Below are positions 1-27,410 of a stretch of 64,000 nucleotides of DNA, piece after piece. Each line of letters opens with the position of its first letter. The first letter of the stretch is position 1. The translations under genes and the position numbers were made by a program. Under the pieces are notes generated by a model that was not told the DNA's origin, did not search any database, and worked only from the letters and a program-made list of their open reading frames with translations. The DNA is taken from the NCBI GenBank assembly GCA_963752475.1, contig CAVVYR010000001.1:1-64000 (forward strand), written 5' to 3'. The DNA comes from an uncultured Chloroflexia bacterium. Its GTDB lineage: Bacteria; Chloroflexota; Limnocylindria; Limnocylindrales; CSP1-4.

Positions 1-116
1 CCCAAAGCATGTGCGCTACCTCTGCGCTACACCCCGACGAGGTTCGTGCGTGGACAAGAGTACACAGCGGGGCCCTACGGCGGTAGCGGAGGGCCTACAC
101 CGCTCGAACCGCACGA
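1..116 (-). repeat. tRNA-Pro(TGG) 5'-half repeat, copy 1 (cut by window edge in the anticodon loop; could be the intact tRNA)
   Basis: Reverse complement of 1-36 = CGGGGTGTAGCGCAGAGGTAGCGCACATGCTTTGGG; upstream TACTCT; right box CTCGAACCGCACGA at 103-116. Confidence 0.9.
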
Positions 117-288
117 AGGCCTGGGTCCTCCGCAACCTCGCTAGGGCAGTGCCTGCGAAAGAACTTCGACGACCTCGGGATCGCTGAGCTCCATCACGTG
201 CACGGTGTCCCGGTGACATTCACGTGCAGCCCTTCGAACGCCGGGCCCGTCCGCGCCCTCACGACATCCTTGTCCTCTGTCTGCTGGG

Positions 289-1350
289 TTAGGCACCAAG
301 GCTGGGCTCGGTGTCGGTGTGGATCTCGCGCTGGACCGGCAGCGCATACGGGTGCTCCCGCTGGAGGTACCCGATGAGCTGCTCGCGCACGAGGCAACGA
401 AGGCTCCACTCCACGCTGGCGTCGGGGGCGCTGTAGAGCGCCCGCACCGTGATGGTGTGATCGTCGGCACCGGTCACCAGCACTGACCAGGCCTCGCCGT
501 CCCAGAGCCCCGACTCGTCGAGGATGCGCTTGTACTCGGTGCGGATCTCATCGATGGGCGCGCGGTAGTCGAGGTAGAGCTTGACCGTACCGAGCAGATC
601 CTTGGTCTTGCGGGTCCAATTCTCGAGCGGCTGGTTCACGATCTGACTGAGGGGCACGATGAGTCGGCGCTTGTCCCAGATGTAGACCACCACATAGGCC
701 GCGGTGATCTCGCCGATGTGACCCCACTCCCCTTCGATGACGACGACGTCACCGATCTTGATGGGCTGGGTGAGGGCGATCTGGACGCCGGCGATGAGGT
801 TGCCGATGAGTGGACCCGCCGCGACACCAAGCACGATGCCCAGCACGCCTGCACCGGCCAGCAAGCTGGCGGCCAGGGGCTGGACACCAGGGATGGTCAG
901 GAAAGCACAGGCGATCGCGACCAGCCAGATGATGATCGACCCGAAGCGCTGCAGCACGGCCAGCTGGGTCCTGACCTGCCGAGCCTCGAGGTCGTCCACT
1001 TCATCGGGGAACCGCGACCGGGCGACATCCTCTCCGACCAAGGTCAGGGACACCGCCAGCCATCCCAAGCCGATGATGCCCAGGAAGACGACGGCTCGAC
1101 GCACGAACTCGGCGGCTTCGGCTCCCATCCAGATCGTCGAGACGAGGATGGTCACGAGCACGACCAGGAAGCGCATCGGGTTGAGCGTGCGCTCGACGAG
1201 GTACTCGTCGAGTTTGGAGTCAGTGTGCCCATGCAAGCGGAGAGCGATGCGCCACGACACCCAGTGGATGACGATCCCGATGAGCACCGCCGCGAAGATG
1301 ATGGCGATAGCGACCAGGTCCCCGCCCGGATCACGAATCTCGATGTTCAA
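289..1350 (-). CDS. Small-conductance mechanosensitive channel (MscS family)
   Basis: TM helices, PLIGNLIAGVQIALTQPIKIGDVVVIEGEWG, ENWTR; TTG start at 1350 with GGAGG RBS. Confidence 0.9.
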   Translation of the reverse strand: MNIEIRDPGGDLVAIAIIFAAVLIGIVIHWVSWRIALRLHGHTDSKLDEYLVERTLNPMRFLVVLVTILVSTIWMGAEAAEFVRRAVVFLGIIGLGWLAVSLTLVGEDVARSRFPDEVDDLEARQVRTQLAVLQRFGSIIIWLVAIACAFLTIPGVQPLAASLLAGAGVLGIVLGVAAGPLIGNLIAGVQIALTQPIKIGDVVVIEGEWGHIGEITAAYVVVYIWDKRRLIVPLSQIVNQPLENWTRKTKDLLGTVKLYLDYRAPIDEIRTEYKRILDESGLWDGEAWSVLVTGADDHTITVRALYSAPDASVEWSLRCLVREQLIGYLQREHPYALPVQREIHTDTEPSLGA

Positions 1351-1540
1351 CTCTCGACCTCCGTCTTGTTTCGGCTCGACCCGCGCCGTGATCGACGCAA
1401 CGATAGCGAGGCCACGCATGGTCCAACTGGTGCCGTGAGGAAGTGCTACCGCTAAGTGCGGACGTCGGACGTCGGACGCCGGTGGCCAGTTCTGAGGGAG
1501 TGGTCTCCGTTGGAGCGCAGGCCGATCGGCTGGCGCGTCT

Positions 1541-2482
1541 CTAGGACGGGTCTCCAGGCACCATGACGTCCAGGGCGCCCGGCATGATGCGAGCCAGCAG
1601 GCTGCCCTCTCCCACGTAGTCGCCGTCGACTTCCAACGGCAGCGGAGTGTCGGCCTCGATCGCGATCTCGCGGCCTCGGAGGCGGAGGCTGGTGGAGCCC
1701 GAGCCGCCTCCCAGGGAGGTTCGGCGCAATTGGTCGGCCAGGACCCGGATACCCCCGATGGGACCGCGGGCACCGACCACGATGAGGTCCAGAAGCCCGT
1801 CGTCCGGCACGATGGGCAGTCGCAGGTCCATGATCCCCGGGAGGAGTCGGCCCATGTTCCCCACGAGTGCGATGGAGGCGTCCGTTTCGATGGCCCGGCC
1901 ATCCAGGGTCAAGCGGTAGGGTGTCGCGTCGAGCCGGGCGACCAACTTGAGTCCCTGGACGAGATACGCCGACCGACCGACCCTCTGCTTCCATGAAGAC
2001 GGTGTCGTGGCCATGATCCGTGCGTCCAGGCCGGCTCCGCACCCGATGGTCATGATGGTCGTACTCTCGGGCTCCCCGATCAGTCGAAGCGTGACCTCTC
2101 CGAGGTCGATGGTGTGGGGCCGAGCGGTCGCGAGGGCCTCAGCGGCCTCCTCCATCGAAGACGGGACGCCGAGGACGTCAGCGAGCTGGTTCGCGGTGCC
2201 CGCTGGGACGACGCCCAGCGGCACACCCGTGCCAGAGAGCGATGCGGCGATATCACGAAGCGTGCCGTCGCCGCCGACCCCGACGACCATGCCGACGCCT
2301 TCCGCAAGAGCGGCGTCCACCGCCGGTCGAGTCTCATCCTGGGCCCTGGTCTCGACGATCCGTGGTGCCGTCCCGTCACGTCGTGTCAGCTCGACGTTGA
2401 GCTTCTCCACCAGCGCCCGTCGTCTGTCCCCATCCCTCGCCTTCGAAGCATTGGGGTTCACGACAACGAGGGAGCCTGCCAC
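1541..2482 (-). CDS. Diacylglycerol/lipid kinase family (YegS/Rv2252-like)
   Basis: VVNPNAS, GGDGT, PAGTANQLA, EVDGD motifs. Confidence 0.9.
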   Translation of the reverse strand: MAGSLVVVNPNASKARDGDRRRALVEKLNVELTRRDGTAPRIVETRAQDETRPAVDAALAEGVGMVVGVGGDGTLRDIAASLSGTGVPLGVVPAGTANQLADVLGVPSSMEEAAEALATARPHTIDLGEVTLRLIGEPESTTIMTIGCGAGLDARIMATTPSSWKQRVGRSAYLVQGLKLVARLDATPYRLTLDGRAIETDASIALVGNMGRLLPGIMDLRLPIVPDDGLLDLIVVGARGPIGGIRVLADQLRRTSLGGGSGSTSLRLRGREIAIEADTPLPLEVDGDYVGEGSLLARIMPGALDVMVPGDPS

Positions 2483-2649
2483 GCGGGAATGCTAGCAGGG
2501 CACCAGCTCGGTTCGTGCCCAGCGTCCGCGCACGAGAGCCAGGAGCGCACCGTCGCTCGGCACCGCATCTACGGTTGTGACAGGGGCGTTGCAGGTTGCC
2601 GACACTGTGGCCACCATTGCGTCGGCTCTGGGTACGCTACCGTTCGATG

Positions 2650-2860
2650 CGGATGCAGCACGCGCGTTCGGAGGGCCGCAGCCTCACCGCGGCGTGCCGG
2701 TCGATGGACCAGCGCACGGACATATGACGCGATGATCGCGGCTGTGGCCATCGCCAACCAACTGCCCCTCTACACCTGTAACCCACGCGACTTCCAGCAC
2801 ATCGATGGTCTGGAAGTCGTGACCGTGCCAATGCCAACCCTGGAGGATGCTGATGGCTGA
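2650..2860 (+). pseudogene. C-terminal remnant of VapC/PIN toxin
   Basis: RTYDAMIAAVAIANQLPLYTCNPRDF is a typical PIN C-terminus; no recognisable N-terminal DT motif or antitoxin. Confidence 0.65.
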
Positions 2861-4016
2861 TCATCACCGCTGGCGCATCGGAGCCCGGCGGGACCGAGCC
2901 GAGACGTATCTCGTCATCACCATCGCCGCCTTCGCCATCACGGTGGGTGGCGTGCGCTGGTATCTGGAGGCGGCCGGCTATCCCACGATCGGCGATGGCG
3001 ACCTGCACGTGGCGCACGTGCTGTGGGGTGGGCTGGCCCTGTTCATCGGTGCCTTGCTACCACTCCTCTGGGTGGGCCGGCGTGCCCTGCTGCTCTCAGC
3101 GCTCCTGGCGGGCATCGGGGCCGGCCTGTTCATCGACGAGGTGGGCAAGTTCCTGACCACTTCCAGCAACTACTTCTTTGCCCCGGCCGCGCCCATCATC
3201 TACGGCAGCATCCTGCTGCTGGTCGTGCTGGTCCTGCTGGTCCGGCGGCGTGACGTGGACCACGACGACGCCACGCACGCGATCCTTGAAGCCCTGCGCG
3301 ATGGCGCGGACGGGCGCCTGACCGCTGAGGACCGCGCACGAGCCCTTGATCTCGCCGAGCGCGCCAATCACGAGTCGAAGGCGGAGGACGACGGCCTCCA
3401 GGCCATCCTCGTCGAGGCCCTGCAGTCAACGGCCATCGACGAACGTCTCGCCTCGGCGGGGCCCGTGGCCCGAGGCGACGCCCGGCGCTGGCTCGAACGC
3501 CTGCTGCCCACACGCGTCGAGCACTGGTTAGTCGTCCTGGTGCTCATCGGCAGCAGCCTTCTTGCGGCCGTCTTGGCGGTCGGCCTCGTGGCATTTGCGC
3601 TCGACCCAGAGATCGTCGACGAGATGATGGCAGACCTGGCCGCTGACGGCGGCCGCTCGGACATCCCAACCAACCCGATCTGGATGGTCTTGCTGCTCGG
3701 CGTGATCGTGGTCGCCGGCAGCCTCGCGACCGCAGCGCTCGTCCTGCTCCGCCTCGGCCGCAGCACGTTGGGGCTCAACGTAGCCCTGCTCGGCGGGCTG
3801 GTCTTCCTCGGCCTCGGAGGGCTGTTGTCGTTCTACGCCGTCCAGTTCGCAGCGCTCACTAACAACGTCCTCGGGCTGGTCTTCCTCGGCCTCATCATCG
3901 ACTACCGCATCCGCATCGCCAACAGCCCGGTCATGCCCACGCCGCCGAGCCGCATACCCGTGGTCGCGTTGCTGCTGATCCTCGTCGTCGTGGTCGTTGT
4001 GTGGAGTCTTCAATGA
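2847..4016 (+). CDS. Multi-pass membrane protein of unknown function
   Basis: Many hydrophobic segments; HVAHVLWGG and GLFIDEVGKF conserved-looking motifs. Confidence 0.75.
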   Translation: MLMADHHRWRIGARRDRAETYLVITIAAFAITVGGVRWYLEAAGYPTIGDGDLHVAHVLWGGLALFIGALLPLLWVGRRALLLSALLAGIGAGLFIDEVGKFLTTSSNYFFAPAAPIIYGSILLLVVLVLLVRRRDVDHDDATHAILEALRDGADGRLTAEDRARALDLAERANHESKAEDDGLQAILVEALQSTAIDERLASAGPVARGDARRWLERLLPTRVEHWLVVLVLIGSSLLAAVLAVGLVAFALDPEIVDEMMADLAADGGRSDIPTNPIWMVLLLGVIVVAGSLATAALVLLRLGRSTLGLNVALLGGLVFLGLGGLLSFYAVQFAALTNNVLGLVFLGLIIDYRIRIANSPVMPTPPSRIPVVALLLILVVVVVVWSLQ

Positions 4017-4077
4017 TCGGTATGCGCTCTGCCGAGAAGTGGGTCCTCGCCTTCAAAACGCAGCCGAGCGATCCACG

Positions 4078-4280
4078 CTCACGAACCGCACAATAATCGA
4101 GGCCTTCACCGCTCGGCCCACCACGCTCAGCGGGGCGGAACCTACGCCGCAAACCGCTCGTAGGCTCCCAAAGCAGGTGCGCTACCGCTGCGCTACACCC
4201 CGACGAGGTTCGTGCGTGACTAGGGTACAAACCCGCCTTGGAGGCGGTAGCGGCGGGACTGAAGCGCTTGGAGCCCGCCA
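4078..4280 (-). repeat. tRNA-Pro(TGG) 5'-half repeat, copy 2
   Basis: Reverse complement of 4164-4202 = CGGGGTG TA GCGC AGCGGTA GCGC A CCTGC TTTGGGA GC; no T-arm follows; TACCCT upstream. Confidence 0.92.
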
Positions 4281-4412
4281 TGGCATCCGCCAAGCATGAG
4301 AGACGGCACGAACTGGCGAGGGTAGGTCTTGCATTCCAGGCCGTGATGTCGTGTGATTTGCAGAACGCTGTGAGCGCTCGGGTGCGTGCACGCACACACA
4401 GGGGGATGAACC

Positions 4413-6401
4413 GTGGGTCCGATGCGATCGTCGGTGAGGGGAACGGTCAGCGGAAGGGGGCTCGCGTCCGGCGCTGCGCTTGTGCTCGCCGCATCCGCAC
4501 TGGCGGCCGCAAACGCGGGAGCAGCGGACGACGAGTCGCTGGTCTACGTCATCGGCGGCGAGATCACCACGCTGAACAACGCGGCCAATGATGGCGCTAC
4601 CGCCGCCGTGATGCCGTGGCTCTACAACGCCCTGTACGTCTACGACGAGAGCCTGACCCCCGTACCGGACATCGCGGCCGACTACGCCGAGACGAGCGAG
4701 AACGGCACCGTCTGGACCATCAGGGTTCGCGATGACGTCTACTTCCAGCCCACCGGGGAGCAACTGACCGCCGAGGACGTCGTCTTCACTTACCAGTTGG
4801 CCAACAGCCAGAACTGCCGCTTCCTCCCGGACAGCTGTCTGGCCTTCGTGACCGTCACCCCCGAGGATGCCGAGGAGCCCGTGAAGGTGCTGCAGAAGGT
4901 CGAGGCACTCGACGACTTCACCGTGCAGTTCACGCTCGCGGAGCCCTACGCGCCATTCGCCACCGGGAGCCTCGCCGGCATGCCGATCAACAGCAGGGAC
5001 GCGACCATGGCCGCGTTCGAGCGGTTCCAGCAGCAGACGGCGGACGTTCAGGCCGCCACCGTCGACGCGCTCCTGTCCGCGCTGGAGGAGGTGGATGACC
5101 CGGTCCCGCTCCGCTCGGGGGCAGAAGCCCTGCTCACGTCCGCCGGACTCGAGCTCCCGGACGAGGCGTCGTACATCGATGAGGATGGCGCGCTCGACGA
5201 GGCCCGCTACGTGGATGCACTCCAGGCCGCGCTCGACGAACTGAGTCTCGTCCTCAACGCAGAAGAGATCGACCGGGTCGCGGCCGCGTACGTCTACCTC
5301 GACATCGGGTCGGCGCCAGTCGGCACCGGCCCGTTCTACCTGTCCGAGTTGCGGGCAGGCCAGGACCTGACCCTTACGCGGAACGAGCAGTACCACCACG
5401 GACCCGCATCGCTCGCGACGGTCTACATGCCCATCATCAAGGACGACGTCGCGAGCGCCGCCGCGCTGGCCGCCGGCGAGATCGACTGGAAGGACGGCTT
5501 CACGGCCGATGGCTACGTGCAGGTCGAGGACGCCCCCGGCGTGAAGTTCGCGCGCTATCCGGACTTCGGCTACTACGCCCTCCAGTTCAACCTGCGCTCC
5601 GGGCGCCTCTTCGCCGATAGGGCCGTGCGGCAGGCGTTGGCATACTGCATCGACAAGGAGGCCACCGTCGCCGCCGCGACCGATGGCGAAGGCATCCCCA
5701 TCTACGCGGATCAGCCGCCCGCGAGCTGGGCGTACAACCCCGATGTCCCCCGCTACGAGTACGACGTGGAGAGGGCCCGGGCGATCCTCGAGGAGGCCGG
5801 CTGGATCGACGCCGACGGCGATGGGGTCCGGGAGAAGGACGGCCGCCCCCTCGCCAGCCACATCCTGCTGCGCGCCGGCAAGCCCGACCGTTCCAAGTTC
5901 ATGCACCTGCTGGCCGAACAGGTCCGCGACTGCGGCTTCGAGCTGACGTTCGAAGAGGTCGACTTCTCGCTCATGTGGGTCGGCCTCTCCTGGCCCCTCA
6001 AGTTCAGCGGGCAGGACGAGCAATGGGACGCCTACTTCGGCGGCTGGGGCACCTGGTACGACCCCGACCCCTTCAGCCTCTGGCACTCGAGCAACTGCGT
6101 GACCGCGGACAAGCCGGATCGCCTCAACTACATCTGCTTCCAGGACAAGCGGGCGGACGAGCTCATCGAGGCCGGCCAGGTGGAGCTCGACCAGGCGAGG
6201 CGGGCGCAGATCTACCAGGAGTTCGAGATGATCATGGCTCAGGAGCTGCCCTACCTGTGGGCCTGGTCCGACCAGGCGATCGAGGGTCTGGCGGAGGACG
6301 TCCACGGTGCCGACGAGTGGACCGAGGATGTGATGTCCACTCCGACCTGGTTCTGGGAGCTGGAGAAAGTCCGCAAGGGCGGCTTCCCGACCATGGAGTA
6401 G
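4413..6401 (+). CDS. Peptide/nickel-type ABC transporter substrate-binding protein (family 5) with internal helical insertion
   Basis: Signal peptide, LTAEDVVFT, PVGTGPF, VRQALAYCIDK, YDVERARAILEEAGW. Confidence 0.88.
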   Translation: MGPMRSSVRGTVSGRGLASGAALVLAASALAAANAGAADDESLVYVIGGEITTLNNAANDGATAAVMPWLYNALYVYDESLTPVPDIAADYAETSENGTVWTIRVRDDVYFQPTGEQLTAEDVVFTYQLANSQNCRFLPDSCLAFVTVTPEDAEEPVKVLQKVEALDDFTVQFTLAEPYAPFATGSLAGMPINSRDATMAAFERFQQQTADVQAATVDALLSALEEVDDPVPLRSGAEALLTSAGLELPDEASYIDEDGALDEARYVDALQAALDELSLVLNAEEIDRVAAAYVYLDIGSAPVGTGPFYLSELRAGQDLTLTRNEQYHHGPASLATVYMPIIKDDVASAAALAAGEIDWKDGFTADGYVQVEDAPGVKFARYPDFGYYALQFNLRSGRLFADRAVRQALAYCIDKEATVAAATDGEGIPIYADQPPASWAYNPDVPRYEYDVERARAILEEAGWIDADGDGVREKDGRPLASHILLRAGKPDRSKFMHLLAEQVRDCGFELTFEEVDFSLMWVGLSWPLKFSGQDEQWDAYFGGWGTWYDPDPFSLWHSSNCVTADKPDRLNYICFQDKRADELIEAGQVELDQARRAQIYQEFEMIMAQELPYLWAWSDQAIEGLAEDVHGADEWTEDVMSTPTWFWELEKVRKGGFPTME

Positions 6402-6429
6402 TCGCCGAGTCGTAGCCCCGACCCGTACC

Positions 6430-11003: not shown

Positions 11004-11008
11004 CTGGT

Positions 11009-18730: not shown

Positions 18731-18751
18731 CTCGACCTCCTGACGTGCTCG

Positions 18752-19115: not shown

Positions 19116-19161
19116 CGTTCTGTTCCTCCGTTCGTTCGTTGGGTTGGGCGGCGATGGAGGC

Positions 19162-19593
19162 CTAGGCCTGAGCCGCCTCGATATCGGCGTAGAGCTGCTG
19201 TACCACGGCACGGGGGACGCGCTCGTCCATGACGACGGATCCGCCGGCGTTCTCGATGGCATCGCTGATGCGTGATGCCCAGGCATGCTCGAACAGCAGG
19301 AGGGCAACCGACGAGTCGGGTCCCAGACCCTCGCTCAGGGCGTACGCGTCCTGCTCGCTGAGCATGGCGGTGACATCGCCCACGACAGGCTCGAAGCGCT
19401 GCAGGACCTCATCCTCGAGCTCGTTGAGCTCAAGCACGCGCACGGGTTCGTCACCGACACGGATGGCCAGGAGGATGTCGATGACGCGGATGACACCGGC
19501 GTCCACGACTCGCTGGATCTCAGGGATGATCTCGCCCTTGAACTGGTTGCCCGGGAACTTGAGCACCACGAGCTCGAGTGGGCCGGTTGACAT
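19162..19593 (-). CDS. DUF6325-like protein
   Basis: GPLELVVLKFPGNQFKGEI, IRVIDIL, LLFEHAWA; typical neighbour of SHOCT genes. Confidence 0.78.
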   Translation of the reverse strand: MSTGPLELVVLKFPGNQFKGEIIPEIQRVVDAGVIRVIDILLAIRVGDEPVRVLELNELEDEVLQRFEPVVGDVTAMLSEQDAYALSEGLGPDSSVALLLFEHAWASRISDAIENAGGSVVMDERVPRAVVQQLYADIEAAQA

Positions 19594-19687
19594 AGGTACC
19601 TCCTCAGGTGCGGGAGCGGCGGCAACGGGACGCCCGCAGCCGATGATGCACTGGGGGAAAAGATAAGCGGCTCGATGAACGATGTCA

Positions 19688-19704
19688 TCACCCTCAAGGG
19701 GTGA
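19688..19704. promoter_or_regulatory. Palindrome TCACCC-N5-GGGTGA, candidate operator of MalT-like LuxR regulator
   Basis: Perfect inverted repeat between the regulator and the DUF6325 operon start. Confidence 0.5.
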
Positions 19705-19730
19705 GCCCGGGCGTTCGGGTCGAGCGAGCC

Positions 19731-22098
19731 CTACCGGCCAACCTCGGCGGATGACTCCGCGAGGATATCGAGCGGCGGCAGTAGTCCGCGGCCCACCGCC
19801 AGCTCGACGGCCTCACTGCGAGAGGTCGCCCCCAACTTCGAGTAGACCGCGCCTGCCTGCGTCTTGATGGTGTTCCTGCTCACGCCCAGGCGGTCACCGA
19901 TCTCTCCCAGCGTCAGATATGTCTGGAGGAACGGGAGAAGCCGCAGCTCGCGATCGGTCAACGATGCCGCCTGGTCGGCAGGGGTACCCGAAGACTCCTC
20001 GGTCATCTCGTCCAGGTCGTCCACCGCGTCTACGAGGGTGCCGAGGAGCGGCCGGTGGGCGATGATCGCGCGGGCCTGCGCGAGCGATGCACGCGCACCG
20101 ATCGCGTCGCTGACACCGAGCTGGGCGCGCGCCAGCTCCGTCAGACAGCGCAGGCCCAGCCAGGGGACCGCCCACGAAACGAGGCGGCGCAGCAGCTGGA
20201 CCCGAGACAGCTCCCTCTTCGCTTCCTGCACGTCTCCCCGGCGGATCGCGACCCGAGCCGCGGCGACCATCCCCAGCAGCGACGTCAGGTAGTCCTCGGC
20301 CCCCGCGTCGCGCAGCGAGCGCCAGAACTCCTCCACCAGCGACTCCGCTCGGCGCCTGCTTCCGTGGTCCAGCTCCATCAGGGCGCACTCTGCGAGCGCC
20401 ACCCTGCGGGTATCGGGAGCCAGCGGTTCAGCCGTCTCGACGATCTGGGCGAACTGCTCCTGTGCTCCATCGACATCGCCATCCATCTGACGCGCGTACG
20501 CGGCCAGCAACATGGCGACCGGTCGCCATGGACTCCAGACGGGCTCGGCGTCGAGGGAGACCTGGGCATGGGCCAGCATGGCCCGCGGCCCCTCGTGACA
20601 ACCGAGCGCCTCCACGAGCGCGCGTGAAGAGGCCATCGACGCGGTGCCATCACCCGGAGGGCTGACGACCTCGCCTGCCCGGGCTGCGGCTCTCCAACGC
20701 TCGAAGTCCTCGGGCCGCCCGTCAAGGGCGGCAAGCCATGCGGCCATCGAGGCGACCGGTGGATGCCGCAGAACGGTCTCCGCATCGAACCGCGCGAACC
20801 ACCGATTGAGCGTGGCGTTCGCACCCTTCTCGTGCAGTGGCTTGGTCGATCGCACCACGAGTCGCGCCGCCTCGTCGATGAGGCCGCCGGCGAACGCGTG
20901 TTCGACTGCTGCCTCCTTCTCACCCGCTCCGGTGAACCATGCGCTCGCGCGCCGGTGGAGCTCCGGCAACAACTCCGGTCGTGTCAGCTCCAGCTCACGG
21001 TGTAGATGCTCACGGAGCAGGTCGTGGCACTTGTACCAGTGTCGGTCCTGGTCGAGCGGCGCCAGGAATGGCGTCTTGCTCGCCAAGGACTCGAGCCGTC
21101 CGGCAGTCCCTGTGCGCTCCAGGACGGCATCCGCCAGCGGCCCGCTCAGGCTATCGAGGATCGACGTCTGCGACAGCAGCGAGCGCTCCTCGGTGCTCAT
21201 CAAGGGAAGAACCTGCGCTTCCAGGTAGTCGGAGATGTATGCGGGGTCCCACGCTGCGCCCGTGTCCACGTGCGCGGTTTCGCGTCCGCGATGGGAGAGG
21301 CCCGCCAGATAGGTCGCGGCCGGCCATCCCTTCGTCCGCTGGTGGATATCCCGGGCCTCCTCGACAGTGAGATCGAGCTTGAGCTCGCGAAGGAGCGACT
21401 GAGATTCTGCCTGGTCAAGCGCGAGATGCTCTGCGTCGACATCGAACAGCTGGCCAGCAGCCCGCCAGCGGCTGTACGGCAGGGCCATGCGTGAACGCGC
21501 GCCGATGGCCATCCGGCTGCCGGCGGGGAGACGGTCGACGAGCCCGGCGATCGCATCGATCGCAGCGGGCTCGTTGACGACGTGTCCGTCGTCCAGGACG
21601 AGGAGCATGGCCTGCGATCGATGATGGATGGCGTCGACCGCTCGATACAGCAGCCTTCGCTCGGCCGGGCCCGGGAACGACCTCATCGCTCTGGGAGCCT
21701 GCCTGGTGGGGCCGCGTGATGCCCAGTGCACCCAGTAGGTGAGAGAGCAGGATCACCGGGTCGTTGTCGATGGTGTCGAGAGACAGCCAGGCCACGTGGG
21801 GACCACACAGGGCGGCCCATTGGCCAAGCAGCGTGGTCTTGCCGTAGCCAGCTGGCGCGACGACGCTGACCAATCGAACACCGCGGCTTTGGCGCAGAGC
21901 GTCAAGCAGTCGGGTTCGCACGATGACACCCGTGCCGGGCACCGGCGGTTCGGTCCGAGCGAGATCGAGCCACACTCCGCCTGCGGACTCGGCCGTCTCC
22001 GCCCTGGGCAGGCCCGCTTGGTCGCGCTGACTGGGTTGCTCGTCCCGGATCGTCCGCTCCTCGTAGCTGCCCGGCGATCGCCAGGAATGCGACGTCAT
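19731..22098 (-). CDS. MalT-like ATP-dependent LuxR-family regulator (frameshift near 21690; start uncertain)
   Basis: APAGYGKTTLL, LVLDDGH, TKGWPAA, C-terminal LTDRELRLL..SRNTIKTQ..VYSKLG. Confidence 0.9.
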
Positions 22099-22170
22099 TG
22101 TCACCCAGGTCCGTCGTTCGGGGTGGACGGAAAGCGACCTCCAGCATAGGGAAGGGACGAGATCGACACG

Positions 22171-22385
22171 CTCGCGAACCACGCTCGCGAACCGGACGAA
22201 AGTCGTCGCCTTCGCCGCTCGGCCCATCGTGCGTGGAACCCCAGGGCCTCCGCCGCAACCCCGCGTGGGCTCCCAGAGCATGTGCGCTACCGCGGGCGAC
22301 ACCCCGACGAGGTTCGTAGCGTGGGATATGGCGCACAGCGGGCCGTGAAGCCATAGCGGGGGGCTACAGCGCTCGAACCGCACGA
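22171..22385 (-). repeat. tRNA-Pro 5'-half repeat, copy 6 (degenerate; left box duplicated)
   Basis: ACGCTCGCGAACC twice (22168-22193); tRNA part 22269-22306; right box CTCGAACCGCACGA. Confidence 0.88.
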
Positions 22386-22422
22386 TAGTCAGCCTTCGTT
22401 CGGCTGGAACTGCCACGTCCTG

Positions 22423-23031
22423 TCACGTGACCAGGCCTTGTGCCCGGTCGCGGATGGTGAGCATCTGCTTGCGTATCATCAGCAGCACGACGAACCCGAT
22501 CACCTGCATCGCGGCCGCACTCACGCGACGCGGGAGAGCCGGGCGGGACCGGATGCGCTCGACGAGACGGGAACGTCTGCCGCCGTCCATCGGTTCGAGG
22601 ACGAACGCCCAGCTCCAACTGCCGGCGATCTCGCTGTGGAGCACCAATGCCCGCTCGGGCTCGAGCCCACGGACGACCCACTCGTTGACCTGGTCTCCCA
22701 CGGCCAGGTCCTGCCACTCGGGCACGATCCGCTCGGCACCCTTGCGGTGCGGCAAGCCGAAGAGCGAATAGCTGTATTCGCCGCCCCGGTCGTCGCCCAT
22801 CTGCACGAGCCATGGCCAGACGGCCGATGGCGGGGCGGCGATCTCGAGGGATCGCGTATCGACTGCGGCCGGGTCGAGCACGAGGTCATCACCCGGAAGC
22901 ACGCTGGCACTGACGGTGGGATCGACGCCCCAAGAGACCACGCGCTGCCAGACACCGCTGAGCCGTAGCGCAACCGCCGCCGAGCCGATGACGGCGACGA
23001 TCGCGAGGCTCACCACCCTCGATCTACCCAT
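22423..23031 (-). CDS. SRPBCC-like protein
   Basis: IAAPPSAVWPWLVQMG..RGG.YSY, WQDLAVGD. Confidence 0.75.
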   Translation of the reverse strand: MGRSRVVSLAIVAVIGSAAVALRLSGVWQRVVSWGVDPTVSASVLPGDDLVLDPAAVDTRSLEIAAPPSAVWPWLVQMGDDRGGEYSYSLFGLPHRKGAERIVPEWQDLAVGDQVNEWVVRGLEPERALVLHSEIAGSWSWAFVLEPMDGGRRSRLVERIRSRPALPRRVSAAAMQVIGFVVLLMIRKQMLTIRDRAQGLVT

Positions 23032-23122
23032 CACTCGCTCTCGATCCGAAGTTGTGTGCATCTGACGGCCCGATGCGCCTGTCGCGAGGTTCGAGATCGG
23101 ACCGGCTTCGGATGCCTCATCG

Positions 23123-23569
23123 TCAGGCGTACGCCGGGACCTTGGCTTCGGCGAGGTCCTTGAAGTCATCGAGCATCTTGCGCATGCTTCGTTCGATCCA
23201 GACCTTGGCCACCATGTCCTTGAGGAAGCCCGGCAGCCGACCCGGCATCTCGCAGTCGGCATCGAAGACCACACGAGTGGAGTCGCCCATCGGCTCGAAC
23301 CGCGCGTACTGGTCCATCGAGCCGAAGTCGCTGCGTTCGTGGTAGAGCCGCTGCGGCTCGACCTCCACGACCTCGTTCAGGGACTCCAGCTCGAAGCCCA
23401 CGAGCCGCATCCTCCCCACGAACGTCGTCCCGACCGCGTCCACCGGCCCGCTGAAGTCCGAGCACTCGCCCCACGGCATCCAGTCCTTCCAGTGGGACAC
23501 GTCGCAGAAGAGCTGCCAGACATGCTCGACCGGCGCCTCGATGCGGATCTCGGCGTGCAAGTGCGTCAC
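23123..23569 (-). CDS. SRPBCC/polyketide cyclase family protein
   Basis: IRIEAPVEHVW; tandem paralog of 23585-24031. Confidence 0.85.
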   Translation of the reverse strand: MTHLHAEIRIEAPVEHVWQLFCDVSHWKDWMPWGECSDFSGPVDAVGTTFVGRMRLVGFELESLNEVVEVEPQRLYHERSDFGSMDQYARFEPMGDSTRVVFDADCEMPGRLPGFLKDMVAKVWIERSMRKMLDDFKDLAEAKVPAYA

Positions 23570-23584
23570 CGCTTCGCTCCTTGG

Positions 23585-24031
23585 CTATGTCTGCACCGGG
23601 ACCTCCGCCTCGGCGGTGGTCTTGAGGTTCTGCATCATCTGGTGGGCGTTCCGCTCGCCCCAGACCTTGGCCAAGACGTCCTTGAGGAAGCCCGGCATCC
23701 GGAAGGCGATGTCGTAGTCGCACTCCACGAGCAGGCGGGTCGCGACACCGTCAGGCTCCAGCCGGATGACCGTGTCCACCGGCCCGGTCTCGCTGTGCTC
23801 GTGGTAGAGCCGCAGCGGTTCCACCTCGACGACCTCGTTCGTCATCTTGAATGCCAAGCCCATCAGGCGCGTCGTGTCGCTGTATGTGGTCCCGACCTGG
23901 TCCAACGGCCCGCTGAAGTCGGAGAACTCGCTCCGTGGCGTCCATTCGTGCAAGCGCGACGAGTCACACAGGACCGCCCAGACTTGCTCGACCGGCGCCT
24001 CGATGCGGACCTCGTCACGGAAGTGGCGCAT
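23585..24031 (-). CDS. SRPBCC/polyketide cyclase family protein
   Basis: VRIEAPVEQVW, EVVEVEPLRLYHE. Confidence 0.85.
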   Translation of the reverse strand: MRHFRDEVRIEAPVEQVWAVLCDSSRLHEWTPRSEFSDFSGPLDQVGTTYSDTTRLMGLAFKMTNEVVEVEPLRLYHEHSETGPVDTVIRLEPDGVATRLLVECDYDIAFRMPGFLKDVLAKVWGERNAHQMMQNLKTTAEAEVPVQT

Positions 24032-24048
24032 ATCTCCCCCTTGGTTCG

Positions 24049-24124
24049 CGGGCCGGGTTCGCCAGTGGCTCGACGCGGTCCAGGGCGGCCAGGGTCTGCG
24101 GACCGAGTGTCATCGCCTCCCGCT
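24049..24124 (-). ncRNA. c-di-GMP-II riboswitch
   Basis: GGGAGGCGATGAC-stem(CGGTCC/GGACCG)-GGCCGCC...CGAGCCACTGGCGAACCCGGCCC, with pseudoknot CGCC/GGCG, just upstream of the RBS. Confidence 0.75.
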
Positions 24125-24178
24125 CAGACGATTCTCCGCCCGATGTCCATGCGATCGAACGATCTGGATAACGCATCC

Positions 24179-25675
24179 TCAGGCGTGCAGGAAGTCGGGC
24201 TCGACGTTCACTGGTTCACCCCGACTCACCCGGAAGTCGCAGCGTTGGCCGCCTTGGGCGATGGTCTCGGTGCGGTCGAGCCGCAAGCCCATGGCCGCGA
24301 ACTGGGGATAGTCGATCCAGCAGAGGAACGGGGTGAGCTCGGGAGCACCTTCGCGTTCGAGATACTTCACGGCCCCGCACTCGATGCAGTCCAGCTGCAT
24401 CCCGGCGTCGCTTCCGTCACCGTCGACGACCTCGTACACCCAGTCGTCCGGGTAGCGGCGTTCCTGGCTGGTGGCAGCGATACGCCGCCACATGTCGATG
24501 CCCCTCTGGCTGAGGAAGCCTCGGCCCTGCAAGCGCATCACCCAGCGCATCGGGACGCTCTTGTAGAAGGCCACCTCCCCGAGGTGGATGAGGCGGGCCG
24601 CTTCCTCCTTCGATGCCCCGCGGGCCCGGAGTGCTCGGTACATCGCCAGCTTGGCCGTGACCTTGACAAGGGTGACGGTCATGCTGTTCTTGCCGCCGCC
24701 GATGTAGGGGATGTCCGGCAGTAGACCCTCGAAGCGCTTGAGCGCGTCCCCGGCGATCAGCTCCGCGGCCGTCTTGCCGTAGGCCTCGGCAAGCGGCTTG
24801 CGGAAGGGTCGGTAGTAGAACCTCGCCAATCGCATGAACCGACCCTTGTGCCTGCGGTACCAGTAGTCTGGGCCCGTGTGCCGGACCTGTTCGACCTTGG
24901 CCGGCGATGCGGCGGGCTCACGACGAAGCTCTGAGGGCAGTTCCTTGCCGCTGACCCAGGCCTCCACCGTGCGGATATGCAGGTCGGGGTCGGCCCGTTG
25001 CCAGCAATGGCCCAGCCCCGGTACATACCAGGCCTCGGCCTCAGGCATGAGCTCAGCCAGGGCAGCATCGATCGGTCGGACGTGGCTCTCCTTCTCGCCG
25101 GCCACGAGCAGCGTGGGGCTGGGGGCACCGAAGGCTGCGTAGTCACTGAAGCATTCCGCGACGACGCGCGCCAACGCCAGGCTCGACGCGACTCGCAGAT
25201 CGTGCGGGTCGTGGGTGTCACTCCACAGGGCCACGCCCGGACGGGTGTGGATAAGGAGCGCCTCGGCGACCGTGATCAGGCGCATGACTTCGCGGGCGAT
25301 GCGCGGGGCGTCGAAGGGCGGTGAGCCATCGATGATGGCCCGCTCGACACGATCGGGATGGCGGTCCAGCAGGGCGTGGACGTGCAGCCCACCCGAGGAG
25401 ATGCCGAAGACGCTCGCCCGTTTCGCGGGGACACGCGCCTCGATGAGCTCCGCGAGCAGGTCGGCGATCCCCTCCTTCGAAGGAGAGGACAGATGATTGC
25501 TGCGCCCGAAGCCGGGCAGGTCCGGGGCCAGGCAGTGGAAGTCGGCGAGCCTGGCCATGTGCTCGTGCCACGCCCGGCTGCTCTGGCCGGCGCCGTGGAT
25601 GAAGACGATGGCCGGCGAGCCGGGAGTCCCGGACTCTGCGACATACAGGTCACCAGGAGAACGCTGCTCACTCAT
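24179..25675 (-). CDS. Alpha/beta hydrolase fused to ATC-hydrolase-like (L-2-amino-thiazoline-4-carboxylic acid hydrolase) domain
   Basis: HGAG, PDLPGFGRS, GISSGG, GH; C-terminal IPYIGG, ECG..K, LCWID, TIAQGGQRCDF. Confidence 0.8.
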   Translation of the reverse strand: MSEQRSPGDLYVAESGTPGSPAIVFIHGAGQSSRAWHEHMARLADFHCLAPDLPGFGRSNHLSSPSKEGIADLLAELIEARVPAKRASVFGISSGGLHVHALLDRHPDRVERAIIDGSPPFDAPRIAREVMRLITVAEALLIHTRPGVALWSDTHDPHDLRVASSLALARVVAECFSDYAAFGAPSPTLLVAGEKESHVRPIDAALAELMPEAEAWYVPGLGHCWQRADPDLHIRTVEAWVSGKELPSELRREPAASPAKVEQVRHTGPDYWYRRHKGRFMRLARFYYRPFRKPLAEAYGKTAAELIAGDALKRFEGLLPDIPYIGGGKNSMTVTLVKVTAKLAMYRALRARGASKEEAARLIHLGEVAFYKSVPMRWVMRLQGRGFLSQRGIDMWRRIAATSQERRYPDDWVYEVVDGDGSDAGMQLDCIECGAVKYLEREGAPELTPFLCWIDYPQFAAMGLRLDRTETIAQGGQRCDFRVSRGEPVNVEPDFLHA

Positions 25676-25709
25676 CTCGTCACCTCGTATGTGGACACGA
25701 ACATGGGTT

Positions 25710-26450
25710 TCACCGTTTCGGGCGAGCGAGGTGGCCGATGCCCACCTCGCGTGCGGCGGCCACGGCGGTCGCCACGCCTTCGGTCCAGGGCTCCCCATGG
25801 CCGGGCAGCAGCCATCGCGCCTCGAGCCCTTCGATGCTGGACAGGGAGGCCAGGGCCTCATCGGGATCCGCTGCGAAGGGACAGATCTGCGGACCACGGC
25901 GCTCGGTGATCACCGCGTCCGTGGCCAGCGCGTCACCTACGAAGAGGGCGTCGTGCCCCGGCGCATGGAAGGTGACGCTGCCGTGCGTATGTCCGGGAGT
26001 GTGGATGACCTGCAGTGCGCCGGGCAGGTCGAGCGTCGTGCCCGCGTCGAATGTGCCGACCTCCGTCAGCGCCTTGGTGCGCATCGCGCCGCGACGCATG
26101 AGCCACAGCAGGTAGTGCAGCAGGGAGCGGAGCCTGCGCTCGCCCATTCCAGCGCTCGGGTTGCCGACCTCGCCCCGCGCGAGAGCCATGTCACGCTCGT
26201 GGATGCTGGCGGGAACGTCGTGCTCGACGCGCAGCCGTTCGGCGAACCCGATGTGGTCTTCGTGACCGTGGGTCAGCACGAGCGCGCGGACGTCCTCGAT
26301 CGTGCGACCCATGGCCGCAAGCTCGGTGGTGAGGTCAGCGTAGTACGCGGGCACGCCCGCATCGACGATGGTGACCTCGCCGGCTTCCTCCAGCAGGTAG
26401 CAGGCGACGACGGTCTCTCCCAGCCGGTGCAGGGACGGCGCTATCCGCAT
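25710..26450 (-). CDS. MBL-fold metallo-hydrolase
   Basis: THGHEDHIG, TPGHTHG, GDA, PGHG. Confidence 0.92.
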   Translation of the reverse strand: MRIAPSLHRLGETVVACYLLEEAGEVTIVDAGVPAYYADLTTELAAMGRTIEDVRALVLTHGHEDHIGFAERLRVEHDVPASIHERDMALARGEVGNPSAGMGERRLRSLLHYLLWLMRRGAMRTKALTEVGTFDAGTTLDLPGALQVIHTPGHTHGSVTFHAPGHDALFVGDALATDAVITERRGPQICPFAADPDEALASLSSIEGLEARWLLPGHGEPWTEGVATAVAAAREVGIGHLARPKR

Positions 26451-26460
26451 CGAATCGGAC

Positions 26461-27102
26461 TCACGCCACGCTCGCTGGCTTCACGCCTCGGGCGAGTAGC
26501 GCCTTCGAGAACACCTTCATCACCGAGACGGTGACATCTTCGAAGCCAGCCTCCTCCACCAGCAGCTGCGCGGCTTCGTCGGTCCACTGCCATTGGCCAA
26601 AGCCGTCGACCACGGCCTCGGTCGACTCCTTCGGGGCGTACCCCGCCTCACCCAGAGTGACTGCCATCCGACCACCCGGACGCAGGACACGGTGCATCTC
26701 CCGCAGCGCTGCCGATGGGTCGGGGACGAACTTCAGGGCATTGACCGATGTAGCAACGCTGAAGCGGTCATCCTCCCAAGGCAGATGGTGGGCCTCGCCC
26801 TCGGCGATCTCCGCGGTGCCCGCAGCGATGCGCTCGGCGAGGCGCCTACGTGCCATGTCGAGCTGCAGCTTGGAGGCATCGAGGCCGGCGACGTAGCGCA
26901 CATGCCTCGCGTGGTCCACGAACAACGTTGCGGAACCACAGCCCACGTCGATCAACTCGTCCTCCGGCTGAAGACCCAACTCAGTAGCGATCGCGCTGTG
27001 AAATGGCCGGCTGCTCCTCGGCATCAGCCTGACACCGAGCCGTCCAGGCAGGCCGTGCGGCACCCCGAAGAACGACATCCACCAGTTTCGGCGCAGGCCC
27101 AT
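26461..27102 (-). CDS. Class I SAM-dependent methyltransferase
   Basis: IDVGCGS, GLDAS, EMHRVLRPGG. Confidence 0.9.
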   Translation of the reverse strand: MGLRRNWWMSFFGVPHGLPGRLGVRLMPRSSRPFHSAIATELGLQPEDELIDVGCGSATLFVDHARHVRYVAGLDASKLQLDMARRRLAERIAAGTAEIAEGEAHHLPWEDDRFSVATSVNALKFVPDPSAALREMHRVLRPGGRMAVTLGEAGYAPKESTEAVVDGFGQWQWTDEAAQLLVEEAGFEDVTVSVMKVFSKALLARGVKPASVA

Positions 27103-27119
27103 CGAGCGTCCCCCCGAAT

Positions 27120-27195
27120 GCGGGCCGGGTTCGCCAGTGGCTCGGCGTGGTCCTCAGCGGCCATGGTCGACGGACCGCGCGTCGTCGCCTCCCGC
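27120..27195 (-). ncRNA. c-di-GMP-II riboswitch (second copy)
   Basis: Same core as 24049-24124 with compensatory outer-stem changes (GC.../...GC versus AC.../...GT). Confidence 0.75.
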
Positions 27196-27296
27196 TACAT
27201 CCGATTATCCGGCGCCTGCCAACCCGGGGGGTCGGAGTCAGGCGGCTCGCTCGGCCAGCCAGGCCAACAGCATCGGGAGTCGACCGTGGAACAAGG

Positions 27297-27410
27297 CTCG
27301 CGAACCGCACGATGAACGAGGCCTTCTCCGCTCGGCCTGCCACGCTCAGAGGCTCGGAGCCTTCGCCGCATACCCCTCGTGGGCTCCCAACGCAGTAGCG
27401 CTACGGGTGC
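27297..27410 (-). repeat. tRNA-Pro 5'-half repeat, copy 7 (truncated)
   Basis: Left arm intact (CTCGCGAACCGCACGA...GGAGCCTTCGCCGCA...GGGCTCCCAA); similarity lost after GCGCTAC. Confidence 0.82.

Follow-up and report, generated by a model that had tools for sequence, protein, structure and literature searches.

The first 27,410 nt of the window, as the whole 64,000-nt stretch under analysis is called here, are occupied by cassettes that alternate with partial copies of tRNA-Pro(TGG). This is probably a tandem accretion array, built by repeated site-specific integration at the anticodon-loop region of a single tRNA-Pro(TGG) gene, and as a variant of tandem accretion it is new. In the proposed mechanism, an incoming circle would carry an attP of about 210 bp. 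Its P arm would bring arm motifs, a box resembling a promoter and a new 5' half for the tRNA, and its P' arm two hairpins and a further arm motif. Upon integration, with the crossover presumably inside the anticodon loop, the newcomer's P arm would take over the tRNA, and the old P arm with its tRNA half would be displaced upstream and joined to the newcomer's P' arm, leaving an attP-like junction between cassettes. The recombinase would be an Xer-like tyrosine integrase of approximately 312-350 aa in which a catalytic domain follows a SAM-like N-domain. Small "driver" elements adjoining the tRNA would encode it, from a divergent gene about 120-180 nt upstream. The six cassettes of the window and 51 other bodies carry no integrase, and so their entry would have needed help, either from an integrase acting in trans or by riding in cis on a driver element (accretion-mobilisation).

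Anatomy of the array

Seven copies of a junction repeat of about 210 nt were found in the window by repeat search, alignment and nhmmer with a 37-copy profile (E-values 7e-29 to 5e-65), all on the minus strand. A preliminary description of this DNA had reported seven co-oriented intergenic elements with the 5' half of tRNA-Pro(TGG) as their core and no T arm; both claims hold, with profile ranges slightly wider than those first given. Each copy consists of an upstream arm, tRNA-Pro(TGG) bases 1-40 and a downstream arm. When aligned to the tRNA gene, the copies match from base 1 past the anticodon loop to ...TTTGGGAGC (approximately tRNA position 40) and diverge thereafter, with no T arm in any of them. 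Arm motifs GTGCGGTTCG(N0-2)GAGCG are present at both junction ends in direct orientation, and an inverted copy lies just 5' of the tRNA start. A conserved TGTGTACCCTA about 20 nt 5' of the tRNA start suggests a putative promoter in the repeat; a strict scan of positions 1-16000 returned no sigma-70 sites. Across all junction copies, identity is 77-94% in the arm motifs, promoter box and tRNA half, and 57-73% in the hairpin blocks. The 40-nt tRNA half is the longest and best conserved stretch of the junction (94% identity).

In a profile search of the genome (E<=1e-3), there is one other, partial copy, on the plus strand of contig C5 (59313-59408), and a maximum-sensitivity scan of the whole window (E<=10) gave no credible copies beyond position 27410. 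The copies are therefore not scattered genome-wide, in line with the earlier expectation. With seven copies in one array and one partial copy elsewhere in 4.25 Mb, the repeat does not behave like a dispersed one of the MITE/REP type, of which many copies in both orientations would be expected.

The window is the start of contig C1 in an assembly of 4.25 Mb that is 88.8% complete, and the 3' half of tRNA-Pro(TGG) lies at the end of contig C32. Because of this position of the 3' half, copy 1 is the live tRNA gene. ARAGORN calls tRNA-Pro(TGG) on the C32 end joined by N to the C1 start, and finds no second tRNA-Pro(TGG) in the assembly. Thus the intact tRNA that had been predicted at the array end is present, split between the two contigs. 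All six displaced copies are upstream of this tRNA and co-oriented with it, as in the displaced-fragment criterion of Islander.

Junction 1 (1..122, minus strand; nhmmer profile and ARAGORN) comprises the P arm and bases 1-39 of the live tRNA, and is cut inside the anticodon loop by the contig start. Junctions 2 to 7 were delimited by alignment and profile, also on the minus strand, and cassette genes were assigned with Pfam, supplemented by frame statistics in cassette 1 and Rfam in cassette 6. Cassette 1 (123..4060) has genes on both strands: an MscS-like channel (289-1902) and a DAGK/YegS-like kinase (1541-2482) on the minus strand, and a weak PIN-like ORF (2114-2860) and a 389-aa protein of no family (2847-4016) on the plus strand. 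Junction 2 (4061..4283) is a full attP-like repeat. Its tRNA 5' half is preceded by the 5' arm motif, a variable hairpin (V1) and a -10-like box, and followed by two hairpins and the 3' arm motif. Junctions 3 (9940..10175) and 4 (12266..12490) are also full repeats, and the tRNA halves of copies 2-4 have 2-3 mismatches over 40 columns. All genes in cassettes 2 to 4 are on the plus strand. Cassette 2 (4284..9939) encodes a family-5 solute-binding protein (4413-6401) and an adenylate cyclase-AAA-TPR protein (6430-9891). Cassette 3 (10176..12265; family F28) encodes an ECF-type sigma factor (10922-11737) between two related proteins, at 10292-10873 and 11542-12210, that belong to no known family. 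Cassette 4 (12491..15299) has genes for a response regulator (12562-13239), a histidine kinase (ORF 13050-14594) and, at 14681-15277, a protein of 198 aa without a known family.

The distal junctions have degenerate tRNA halves, scored here over the same 40 columns. Junction 5 (15300..15484; 8 mismatches and 3 gaps) is without the outer 5' arm motif, and junction 6 (22162..22402; 5 mismatches and 1 gap) is full-length. In junction 7 (27281..27410; 7 mismatches and 16 gaps), where the recognisable array ends distally, the P' arm is well preserved, the upstream arm is missing and the tRNA core has degenerated. The genes between these junctions are on the minus strand. Cassette 5 (15485..22161) carries a MIP channel fragment (15527-16084), a bestrophin-like protein (16346-17155), a DUF1254/DUF1214 protein (17246-18730), a DUF6325 protein (19162-19593) and a LuxR-type regulator with an NTPase part (19731-21731). 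Cassette 6 (22403..27280) carries two tandem SRPBCC genes (23123-23569 and 23585-24031), a hydrolase (24179-25897), a metallo-beta-lactamase-fold protein (25710-26450) and a methyltransferase (26461-27102), plus two c-di-GMP-II-GAG riboswitch matches (24042-24129 and 27114-27201).

The intervals had been described as free of recombinases, and this is confirmed both by Pfam searches of 30 ORFs in the array intervals and by six-frame searches of the whole genome, in which PF00589, PF00239 and PF07508 have no match in C1:1-64000.

Arrays and the cognate integrase in related genomes

The junction repeat was matched in 32 of 36 same-genus genomes. All ten relatives that were fetched have an intact tRNA-Pro(TGG) with an array of 2-19 junctions, co-oriented with it and located only on its 5' side; syntenic core genes occupy the 3' side (DUF2568, GGDEF, Cys/Met PLP enzyme and GlnA). 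Cassette cargo across arrays includes toxin-antitoxin pairs, regulators and enzymes, and no recombinase. In total 57 cassette bodies were measured (the window's six cassettes and 51 from the ten relatives), ranging from 432 to 9039 nt with a median of 1.9 kb. Seventeen of the 57 are <=1.2 kb, and thus too small for an integrase plus cargo.

Cassettes have been reordered, and have recently been transferred between species. Cassette order conflicts in 8 of the 10 genome pairs that share at least three families, so gene order across the repeats is not conserved, a point on which the preliminary description had made its model depend. Some cassettes share 90-95% identity between species whose core flanks share 75-83%, and in 11 of 83 cassette alignments identity exceeds the core value of the genome pair by more than 5 points. 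No two junctions have both flanks in common (25 pairs share the left only and 50 the right only).

A cognate integrase family is found at the tRNA site. Within the genus it is present there in only 1 of 49 genomes (G008), where a 5.7-kb element separates the tRNA from a displaced ...AGCGCACATGCTTTGGGAGCC-plus-P'-arm copy. This element encodes an Xer-like tyrosine integrase that matches PF00589 and SAM-like domains and has no obvious arm-binding domain; no replication family was found among the element's 10 ORFs with Pfam. The 20 closest homologues in the order have 59-77% identity in the genome search (66-78% by later tblastn). Sixteen of these, in sister genera, lie upstream of an intact tRNA-Pro(TGG) at a distance of about 180 nt and in divergent orientation, three have the same layout at tRNA-Val(GAC), and the remaining locus is cut by a contig end. 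At all upstream junctions inspected (L109, L115, L118 and L121), a tRNA 5' half, partial in L115, is fused to a homologous P' arm. L109, and possibly L115, shows a driver in tandem with a unit that lacks an integrase; the window's genome does not.

The preliminary description had also asked for a recombinase at the array end. This is borne out for G008 and the 16 sister-genus loci, and not for the window's genome or five relatives checked, in which none is present at that position. The best match to the cognate integrase in the window's genome is a 128-residue fragment on contig C29 (50% identical), and there is no intact one. Two Xer-like genes are found in 48 of 49 genus genomes, on a loose count in which the strong pair is listed or implied. 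Elements that exploit Xer/dif (IMEX, dif modules) form a class of their own, in which host Xer proteins move units flanked by dif-like XerC/XerD sites. Of the earlier proposal that small circular cassettes, each with a promoter, are stacked at tRNA-Pro by a trans-acting integrase, the stacking and the cognate integrase are thus observed, and the promoter, the circles and the action in trans would be parts of the model. A read-based attempt, itself inconclusive, revealed no circular or empty-site molecule.

Mosaic junctions and alternative origins

Under the simple form of the integration model, each arm should move in its entirety with its neighbour, the P arm with the left cassette and the P' arm with the right. 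However, flank-linked identity is observed only at the outermost motifs: the 5' motif reaches a mean percentile of 0.73 against the left flank, the 3' block one of 0.68 against the right flank, and all blocks between stay near 0.5. The breakpoints had been placed in the anticodon loop; tRNA identity does end there, but flank-linked identity stops instead at the outermost arm motifs, and so this simple picture is incomplete. The repeat blocks are also unlinked to each other (Mantel r <=0.26). As they follow neither the flanks nor each other, other exchange, homologous or at arm motifs, must be frequent, and the mosaic nature of the junction repeats indicates that homologous exchange also acts. 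These mosaics make the cassette-exchange route of the arrays directly testable.

It is conceivable, although unlikely, that junctions once made by integration now serve mainly as portable homology, and that DNA arriving from relatives replaces or inserts cassettes through RecA-type double crossovers in which no integrase takes part. The fine-scale mosaics, with blocks unlinked beyond the outermost motifs, are consistent with this, as are the lack of any detected within-genome homogenisation of junction repeats, the absence of an integrase from the locus in nearly all array-bearing genomes, and three internally deleted junctions that retain only outer motifs, together with one precise outer-motif fusion. 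However, the longest and best conserved stretch is the tRNA half, yet the breaks beside high-identity cassettes coincide with the shorter outer motif in 5 of the 8 left-flank pairs examined. The arm motifs are moreover conserved as if selected, a dedicated integrase family occupies the same site in sister genera, and the addition of new junction repeats would be left unexplained.

More doubtful still is that the array is a graveyard, in which each unit came with its own integrase, as in tycheposon or Islander tandems, then lost it by deletion, so that nothing is mobile now. The degenerate distal copies in the window would fit such a history, as would driver elements with an integrase being seen only adjoining the tRNA, and a modest trend for tRNA halves farther from the tRNA to be more decayed (Spearman rho 0.32, p 0.013, from data that are not independent). 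A possible 20-residue integrase remnant adjoins a P arm in G014, but at E 0.16 this is the best tblastn match in 11 arrays (57 bodies), and 75 further loci have no match at E<=1e-3. The small size of 17 of the 57 bodies and the frequent order conflicts also argue against a graveyard, as do the tRNA halves that are still nearly intact at ranks 15-18 in G035, and the recurrence in several species of one integrase-less cassette, its ends unchanged, at 92-95% identity, against about 75% in the core flanks. That the repeat acts as a functional RNA or regulatory unit, or is a local non-autonomous MITE/REP-like repeat, and so is unrelated to integration, is very improbable, since its three hairpins with variable stems and conserved loops, and a promoter-like box per copy that could yield a truncated tRNA-like transcript, have to be set against array copies that are co-oriented and anchored on the tRNA with only one partial copy outside, the use of the same arms by integrase-bearing elements, no Rfam family covering the repeat at gathering score, and no convincing covariation in consensus folding.

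Repeated integration at the tRNA thus remains the preferred reading. A more far-reaching form of it is tentatively put forward, in which the array would be a tRNA-anchored analogue of the integron, dedicated to capturing cassettes: integrase-less mini-cassettes of down to one gene, each with an attP of about 210 bp that holds a spare promoter and tRNA 5' half, would be excised and re-inserted singly, in trans, by an Xer-like integrase visiting on minimal driver elements, cassette bodies would be shuffled between junction modules by further exchange at the outer arm motifs, and the same architecture with unrelated arm motifs would have arisen or spread in Gemmatimonadota. If integrase-less tRNA-half attP cassettes do move as units, they would represent a second, independent route to integron-like accessory-gene libraries. 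The lineages concerned are abundant in soil and sediment but uncultured (records labelled Limnocylindrales/Chloroflexia), and Gemmatimonadota have a parallel form. An essential single-copy tRNA would be a safe, self-repairing landing pad, and the compact integrase-attP pair, with its defined specificity and Pro(TGG), Val(GAC) and Arg(CCG) variants, is a candidate genome-engineering tool.

Relationship to known systems

In integrons, IntI is encoded next to attI, and attC sites that are imperfect palindromes separate co-oriented, mostly promoterless cassettes. Sedentary chromosomal integrons are one-ended arrays of small, often single-gene cassettes, including toxin-antitoxin pairs. The array has in common with integrons a between-species cassette pool, cassette reordering and structured sites between cassettes. 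Unlike integrons, it has no intI, attI or attC; its junctions are tRNA halves with direct arm motifs, and its anchor is an essential tRNA gene that would be rebuilt by each newcomer. The cognate integrase is not an IntI (58.3 bits on TIGR02249, against a cut-off of 265). Cassette genes are found on both strands, so the expression logic is unlike that of an integron and the cassettes must carry their own promoters. Cis-mobilisable elements (CIMEs), a concept reportedly from Pavlovic 2004, are a further point of comparison, as the window's units are bounded by putative att sites, judged by sequence, and have no integrase.

In the Dehalococcoides ssrA islands, 15 units without an integration module are read as att-flanked passengers of accretion; these islands are much larger, sit at the ssrA 3' end with a 20-bp repeat, and employ CcrB-like serine recombinases (PMC3146451). 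Both systems are tandem islands of Chloroflexota at a single-copy small-RNA gene, and the array differs in its tRNA 5' half, long att with arm motifs, Xer-like tyrosine recombinase and cassettes of about 1-7 kb. The Islander report lists 159 of 3919 islands with a 5' fragment and only four tandems with at least three members, and requires an integrase in every member (PMC4383910). Islander islands resemble the array in having an intact tDNA, displaced fragments of it that are co-oriented and lie on the correct side, and an att site centred on the anticodon. The array differs in that 5' fragments are the norm, junctions number up to 19, and members are without integrase. An integrase per island is absent from the window and is found only in G008 and the 16 sister-genus loci; finders demanding one per unit would miss the hypervariable island that the array explains.

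Prochlorococcus tycheposons carry their own integrase and replication genes, number 1-2 elements per genome, and include tRNA-Pro(tgg) among seven target tRNAs (bioRxiv 10.1101/2020.12.28.424599). Tycheposons and the array both involve tRNA integration and tandem elements split by partial tRNA copies, with older ones pushed inward, and both leave remnants and carry cargo. The array is unlike them in having up to 19 junctions, integrase-less bodies with a median of 1.9 kb, a full attP-like site of about 210 nt per junction, and a host in another phylum. The tycheposon mobility module (recombinase plus primase/helicase) is absent from the window, and of this module the G008 driver has, by Pfam, the integrase but no replication family. 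The tandem arrangement of full and partial tRNA that characterises tycheposons is present in the window.

Junction repeats and the tRNA gene at the array end

A unit of ~210 nt is common to seven stretches of the window between positions 1 and 27410, all on the minus strand (repeat finding and alignment). The array is real and beyond chance, and its co-oriented copies lie where the preliminary description had placed them, its coordinates being correct within ~20 nt by alignment and profile searches. The assembly (4.25 Mb in 38 contigs, 88.8% complete, 5.8% contamination) was mapped with a profile built from the window copies (E<=1e-3), which returned the seven copies in contig C1 and a single partial one elsewhere. 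An unfiltered scan of the window with a profile of 37 full copies from 11 genomes added nothing credible past 27410. The sole copy outside the array, at C5:59313-59408 on the plus strand (L022:15313-15408), consists of the upstream arm and a shortened tRNA start followed by unrelated sequence.

Read in tRNA orientation, the repeat opens with an outer motif, (A)TCGTGCGGTTCGAGCGCTGTAGGCC, which is followed by a variable hairpin (V1), a conserved TGTGTACCCTA box and an inverted copy of the motif (CCACGCACGAACC) placed directly before the tRNA start. Bases 1 to ~40 of tRNA-Pro(TGG), ending in ...CATGCTTTGGGAGC, come next, then hairpins V2 and V3 with variable stems and a last block, GAGCGGCGAAGGCCTCGATTATTGTGCGGTTCGCGAGCGTG. 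The outer arm motif of the junctions is GTGCGGTTCG..GAGCG. Hairpins 3' of the tRNA half are predicted by single-sequence folds, and consensus RNA folding of the 37 repeat copies gave no convincing covariation except in the D-arm. A strict sigma-70 scan of positions 1-16000 returned no sites.

ARAGORN called neither any tRNA within the window nor a tRNA-Pro(TGG) anywhere in the assembly, where tRNA-Pro is represented only by Pro(CGG) (two genes) and Pro(GGG) (one gene). The window starts inside the anticodon loop of copy 1, and contig C32 closes with 40 bases that, when reverse-complemented, form a tRNA 3' half with an acceptor strand that pairs with copy 1. When the C32 end, one N and the C1 start are joined, ARAGORN calls tRNA-Pro(TGG). 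Thus, copy 1 is the live tRNA-Pro(TGG) gene, and the assembly break was placed at the point where repeat and gene diverge. The 20 kb on the 3' side of the tRNA encode DUF2568, sulfotransferase-like and GGDEF proteins, a Cys/Met PLP enzyme, glutamine synthetase and dehydrogenases, with no recombinase.

The repeat was matched in 32/36 same-genus genomes; in a second genus sampled, the match is confined to the tRNA part. The locus was fetched from 10 of the 32 repeat-bearing genomes, and in all ten one end is formed by an intact tRNA-Pro(TGG), as had been expected of the array, with every repeat copy co-oriented and on the tRNA 5' side. Arrays range from 2 to 19 junctions across these relatives and the window's genome. 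The 3' flank is syntenic across genomes and the 5' side is not. Public records carrying the repeat are titled as uncultured Chloroflexia or Candidatus Limnocylindrales MAGs.

An integrase clade associated with the site

That none of the intervals between junctions encodes a recombinase was upheld by Pfam scans of 30 ORFs and by six-frame genome searches with PF00589, PF00239 and PF07508, which gave no match in C1:1-64000. Elsewhere in the window's genome, these searches matched two strong Xer-like genes on C14 and a fragment at C1:210935-211123. No resolvase was found in the six-frame search, and PF07508 (Recombinase) gave one weak match, at C5:48531-48665, ~11 kb from the partial repeat copy on that contig. 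Five relatives have no tyrosine recombinase near the array (G009 has an Xer-like pair only). A recombinase among the conserved neighbours was also considered and rejected, as the tRNA 3' flank and the distal flank carry housekeeping or cargo families only.

A tyrosine integrase adjoins tRNA-Pro(TGG) in one of 49 genomes of the genus (G008). In that genome, the tRNA is separated by a 5.7-kb element from a displaced copy reading ...AGCGCACATGCTTTGGGAGCC, which is followed by a P' (downstream) arm with the usual outer motif; the upstream arm of the element bears related motifs. The 312-aa integrase combines SAM-like and catalytic domains, and among NCBIfam models it scores best with XerC (163 bits, where the cut-off is 335). 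Its gene begins ~120 nt from the tRNA and points in the opposite direction, and the remainder of the element holds small ORFs, among them those downstream of the integrase at L098:12851-13212, plus PRC-barrel and ferritin-like cargo. Homologues at E<=1e-45 occur in 129/401 sampled genomes of the order, a tally that includes the unpublished G252 and G273. The 20 closest were fetched (59-77% identity in the genome search, 66-78% by tblastn), and 16 of them lie ~180 nt upstream of an intact tRNA-Pro(TGG), in divergent orientation. The recombinase anticipated beside the tRNA was not found at the array end in the window's genome or the five relatives, but is present in G008 and in these 16 loci.

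In the upstream junctions inspected (L109, L115, L118, L121), the tRNA 5' half is kept and gives way, past ...GGGAGC or ...GGGACC, to a P' arm with this same architecture, with just the final bases of the half remaining in L115. As homologues adjoin intact tRNAs and the upstream junctions keep tRNA 5' halves, the G008-type clade appears to target the anticodon region of specific tRNAs and to supply a new 5' half. L109 has the integrase-bearing element next to the tRNA and then an additional integrase-less unit of 1.6 kb. Three of the 20 homologues (L119, L120, L123) adjoin tRNA-Val(GAC) in the same divergent layout, and one is cut by a contig end, at a locus where a tRNA-Arg(CCG)-like 5' half is fused to this type of P' arm (L122:5850-6110). 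From these tRNA-Val layouts and the tRNA-Arg-like remnant, the family has evidently switched tRNA targets.

The window's genome retains only fragments of this integrase family, on C29 and C6; that at C29:235145-235486 adjoins tRNA-Gly(TCC) and that at C6:724582-724716 is near tRNA-Arg(TCG). Integrase remnants were not detected in the arrays themselves (best E-value 0.16 in 11 arrays, none at E<=1e-3 in 75 further loci).

Cassette content and movement

Window cargo recognised by Pfam includes a mechanosensitive channel with a DAG-kinase-like enzyme, a solute-binding protein with an adenylate cyclase-STAND-TPR protein, an ECF sigma factor, a two-component pair, a MIP channel fragment, a bestrophin-like protein, DUF1254/1214, a LuxR-type regulator, two SRPBCC proteins, hydrolases and a methyltransferase, and cassette genes occupy both strands. 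In cassette 6 (22403-27280), the SRPBCC (polyketide-cyclase-like) genes are in tandem on the minus strand (23123-23569 and 23585-24031), each encoding 148 aa with ~70-75% DNA identity, as a local duplication. Two c-di-GMP-II-GAG riboswitch matches on the minus strand of this cassette score above the gathering score of 40, one directly upstream of an SRPBCC gene (24042-24129, 54.6 bits) and the other upstream of the methyltransferase gene (27114-27201, 52.5 bits). The family of this methyltransferase, F3, is found again beside junctions in many relatives.

A conserved distal island flank is found at ~43135-44579, with an MsrA-like gene and a PIN toxin plus partner; 27.4-43 kb is therefore variable DNA without recognisable junctions. 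A 6.3-kb contig of the same genome (C38) is a second copy of this flank, with ~80% identity at the protein level, so that strain mixture or contamination is suspected.

Across arrays, the 57 cassette bodies measure 432-9039 nt (median 1919), with 17 of them at or below 1.2 kb. Recurrent cassettes encode a PemK/MazF toxin plus partner, PIN toxin, Phd/YefM antitoxin, NYN protein, beta-lactamase-family hydrolase, methyltransferases, ECF sigma factors, sulfatase, MIP and solute-binding proteins. When junctions were paired by homologous flanks, none shared both flanks, 25 pairs shared the left only and 50 the right only. Gene order conflicts in 8/10 genome pairs (those with three or more single-copy families in common on the array side), bearing out the predicted reordering of cassettes between relatives; in the two conflict-free pairs the shared families belong mainly to the conserved distal flank.

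Nucleotide identity of the housekeeping flank is 75-83% in most species pairs and up to 89% in a few. Toxin-antitoxin cassette F11 reaches 92-95% among G009, G021, G024 and G031, G031 and G035 share a 3.5-kb cassette at 89.6% identity, and 11/83 cassette alignments exceed the core value of their pair by more than 5 points. As some cassettes are far closer than the housekeeping flank, integrase-less cassettes have, judging from these comparisons, recently passed between species. Circles or empty sites were sought in contigs of 4 of the 20 sequencing runs matching positions 1-10000, placed on 1-20000; the contigs were short, with joint sides of at most 31 nt, and joints within repeats connected equivalent positions of different repeats, as expected from repeat cross-matching. 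Cassette coverage in other samples was uneven and carries no weight here.

Mosaic junctions and related systems

Under serial integration with crossover in the anticodon loop, the upstream part of a junction would travel with the left cassette and the downstream part with the right. In rank tests, linkage to the flanks is seen for the outermost blocks only (the 5' motif has a mean percentile of 0.73 against the left flank, the 3' block one of 0.68 against the right flank), with inner blocks at 0.46-0.65. Similarity falls directly past ...GCTGTAGGCC in 5/8 left-flank pairs with flank identity of at least 86%, repeat blocks are mutually unlinked (Mantel r 0.01-0.26), and three junctions have lost the inner part while keeping both outer motifs. 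As flank linkage is confined to the outermost blocks, blocks are unlinked and inner parts are lost, the junctions are mosaics, with frequent exchange at the outer motifs or close to them. Thus, the proposal of breakpoints in the anticodon loop alone is incomplete.

Homologous recombination may account for the exchange at the outer motifs, as may a second site-specific activity or the integrase itself acting with a motif-binding partner. Crossover at outer motifs only, with a body and one motif moving, was rejected, there being 2 plausible solo motifs against 57 in-repeat motif matches in 11 arrays, and none in the window. Concerted evolution of junctions within a genome was rejected as well, since within-genome identity equals between-genome identity for every block.

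Two further junctions have unusual structures. At oriented position 34736 of the G021 array, a module-less junction has its outer 5' motif and outer 3' block precisely fused (...GATTCGAGCGCTG|AAGGCCTCGATCATCG...), as though a deletion between two similar GAGCG..AGGCC boxes had removed the inner module. In the G035 array (L005-L007 region, oriented 24773-25672), a junction is split at the promoter-proximal inverted motif by a 650-nt insert with a 119-aa ORF, and ~11 model columns are present on both sides.

Stacking of cassettes at tRNA-Pro is mostly borne out, by the array, the tRNA, the reordering and the integrase of the site, but the breakpoint picture is more complex than first proposed. 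We infer circular intermediates and action of the integrase in trans. The likeness to an integron stands for the outcome, but every defining integron test failed.

In the Islander paper (PMC4383910), a 5' fragment is reported for 159/3919 islands, with just 4 tandems of three or more, each member with an integrase. The tycheposon preprint (bioRxiv 10.1101/2020.12.28.424599) describes seven target tRNAs, Pro(tgg) among them, as well as remnants and tandem elements with partial tRNAs between them. The ssrA islands of Dehalococcoides are likewise tandem (PMC3146451), 15 being without an integration module and proposed as cis-mobilisable passengers. The principle of tandem accretion is common to these and to the window's system. 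The latter differs in that 5' halves are the rule, an attP-like site of full length makes up each junction, the very small units are numerous, arrays are almost without integrases, and the integrase is of another type. The literature listings searched, with tycheposons covered in the preprint version, yielded no description of integrase-less tRNA-5'-half cassette arrays.

The repeat pattern search also matched Gemmatimonadota and Longimicrobiales MAG records (L024, L027, L043, L064, L087, L088, L092). Their contigs have several tRNA-Pro(TGG) 5' halves, 1-4 kb apart, each followed by a conserved arm that is unrelated in sequence to the window's arm and has the same layout, and a direct motif, TTTGGCACAGTTT, flanks the tRNA half ~90 nt upstream and ~150 nt downstream. 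In five Gemmatimonadota array genomes, matches to the G008 integrase are Xer-like only, at 29-32% identity, and in G073 no integrase match falls on the presumed array contigs, the numbering of which was presumed from record suffixes. At the end of a Planctomycetota MAG contig (L089), the tRNA-half pattern occurs twice, at a distance of 216 nt, within a ~216-nt tandem repeat.
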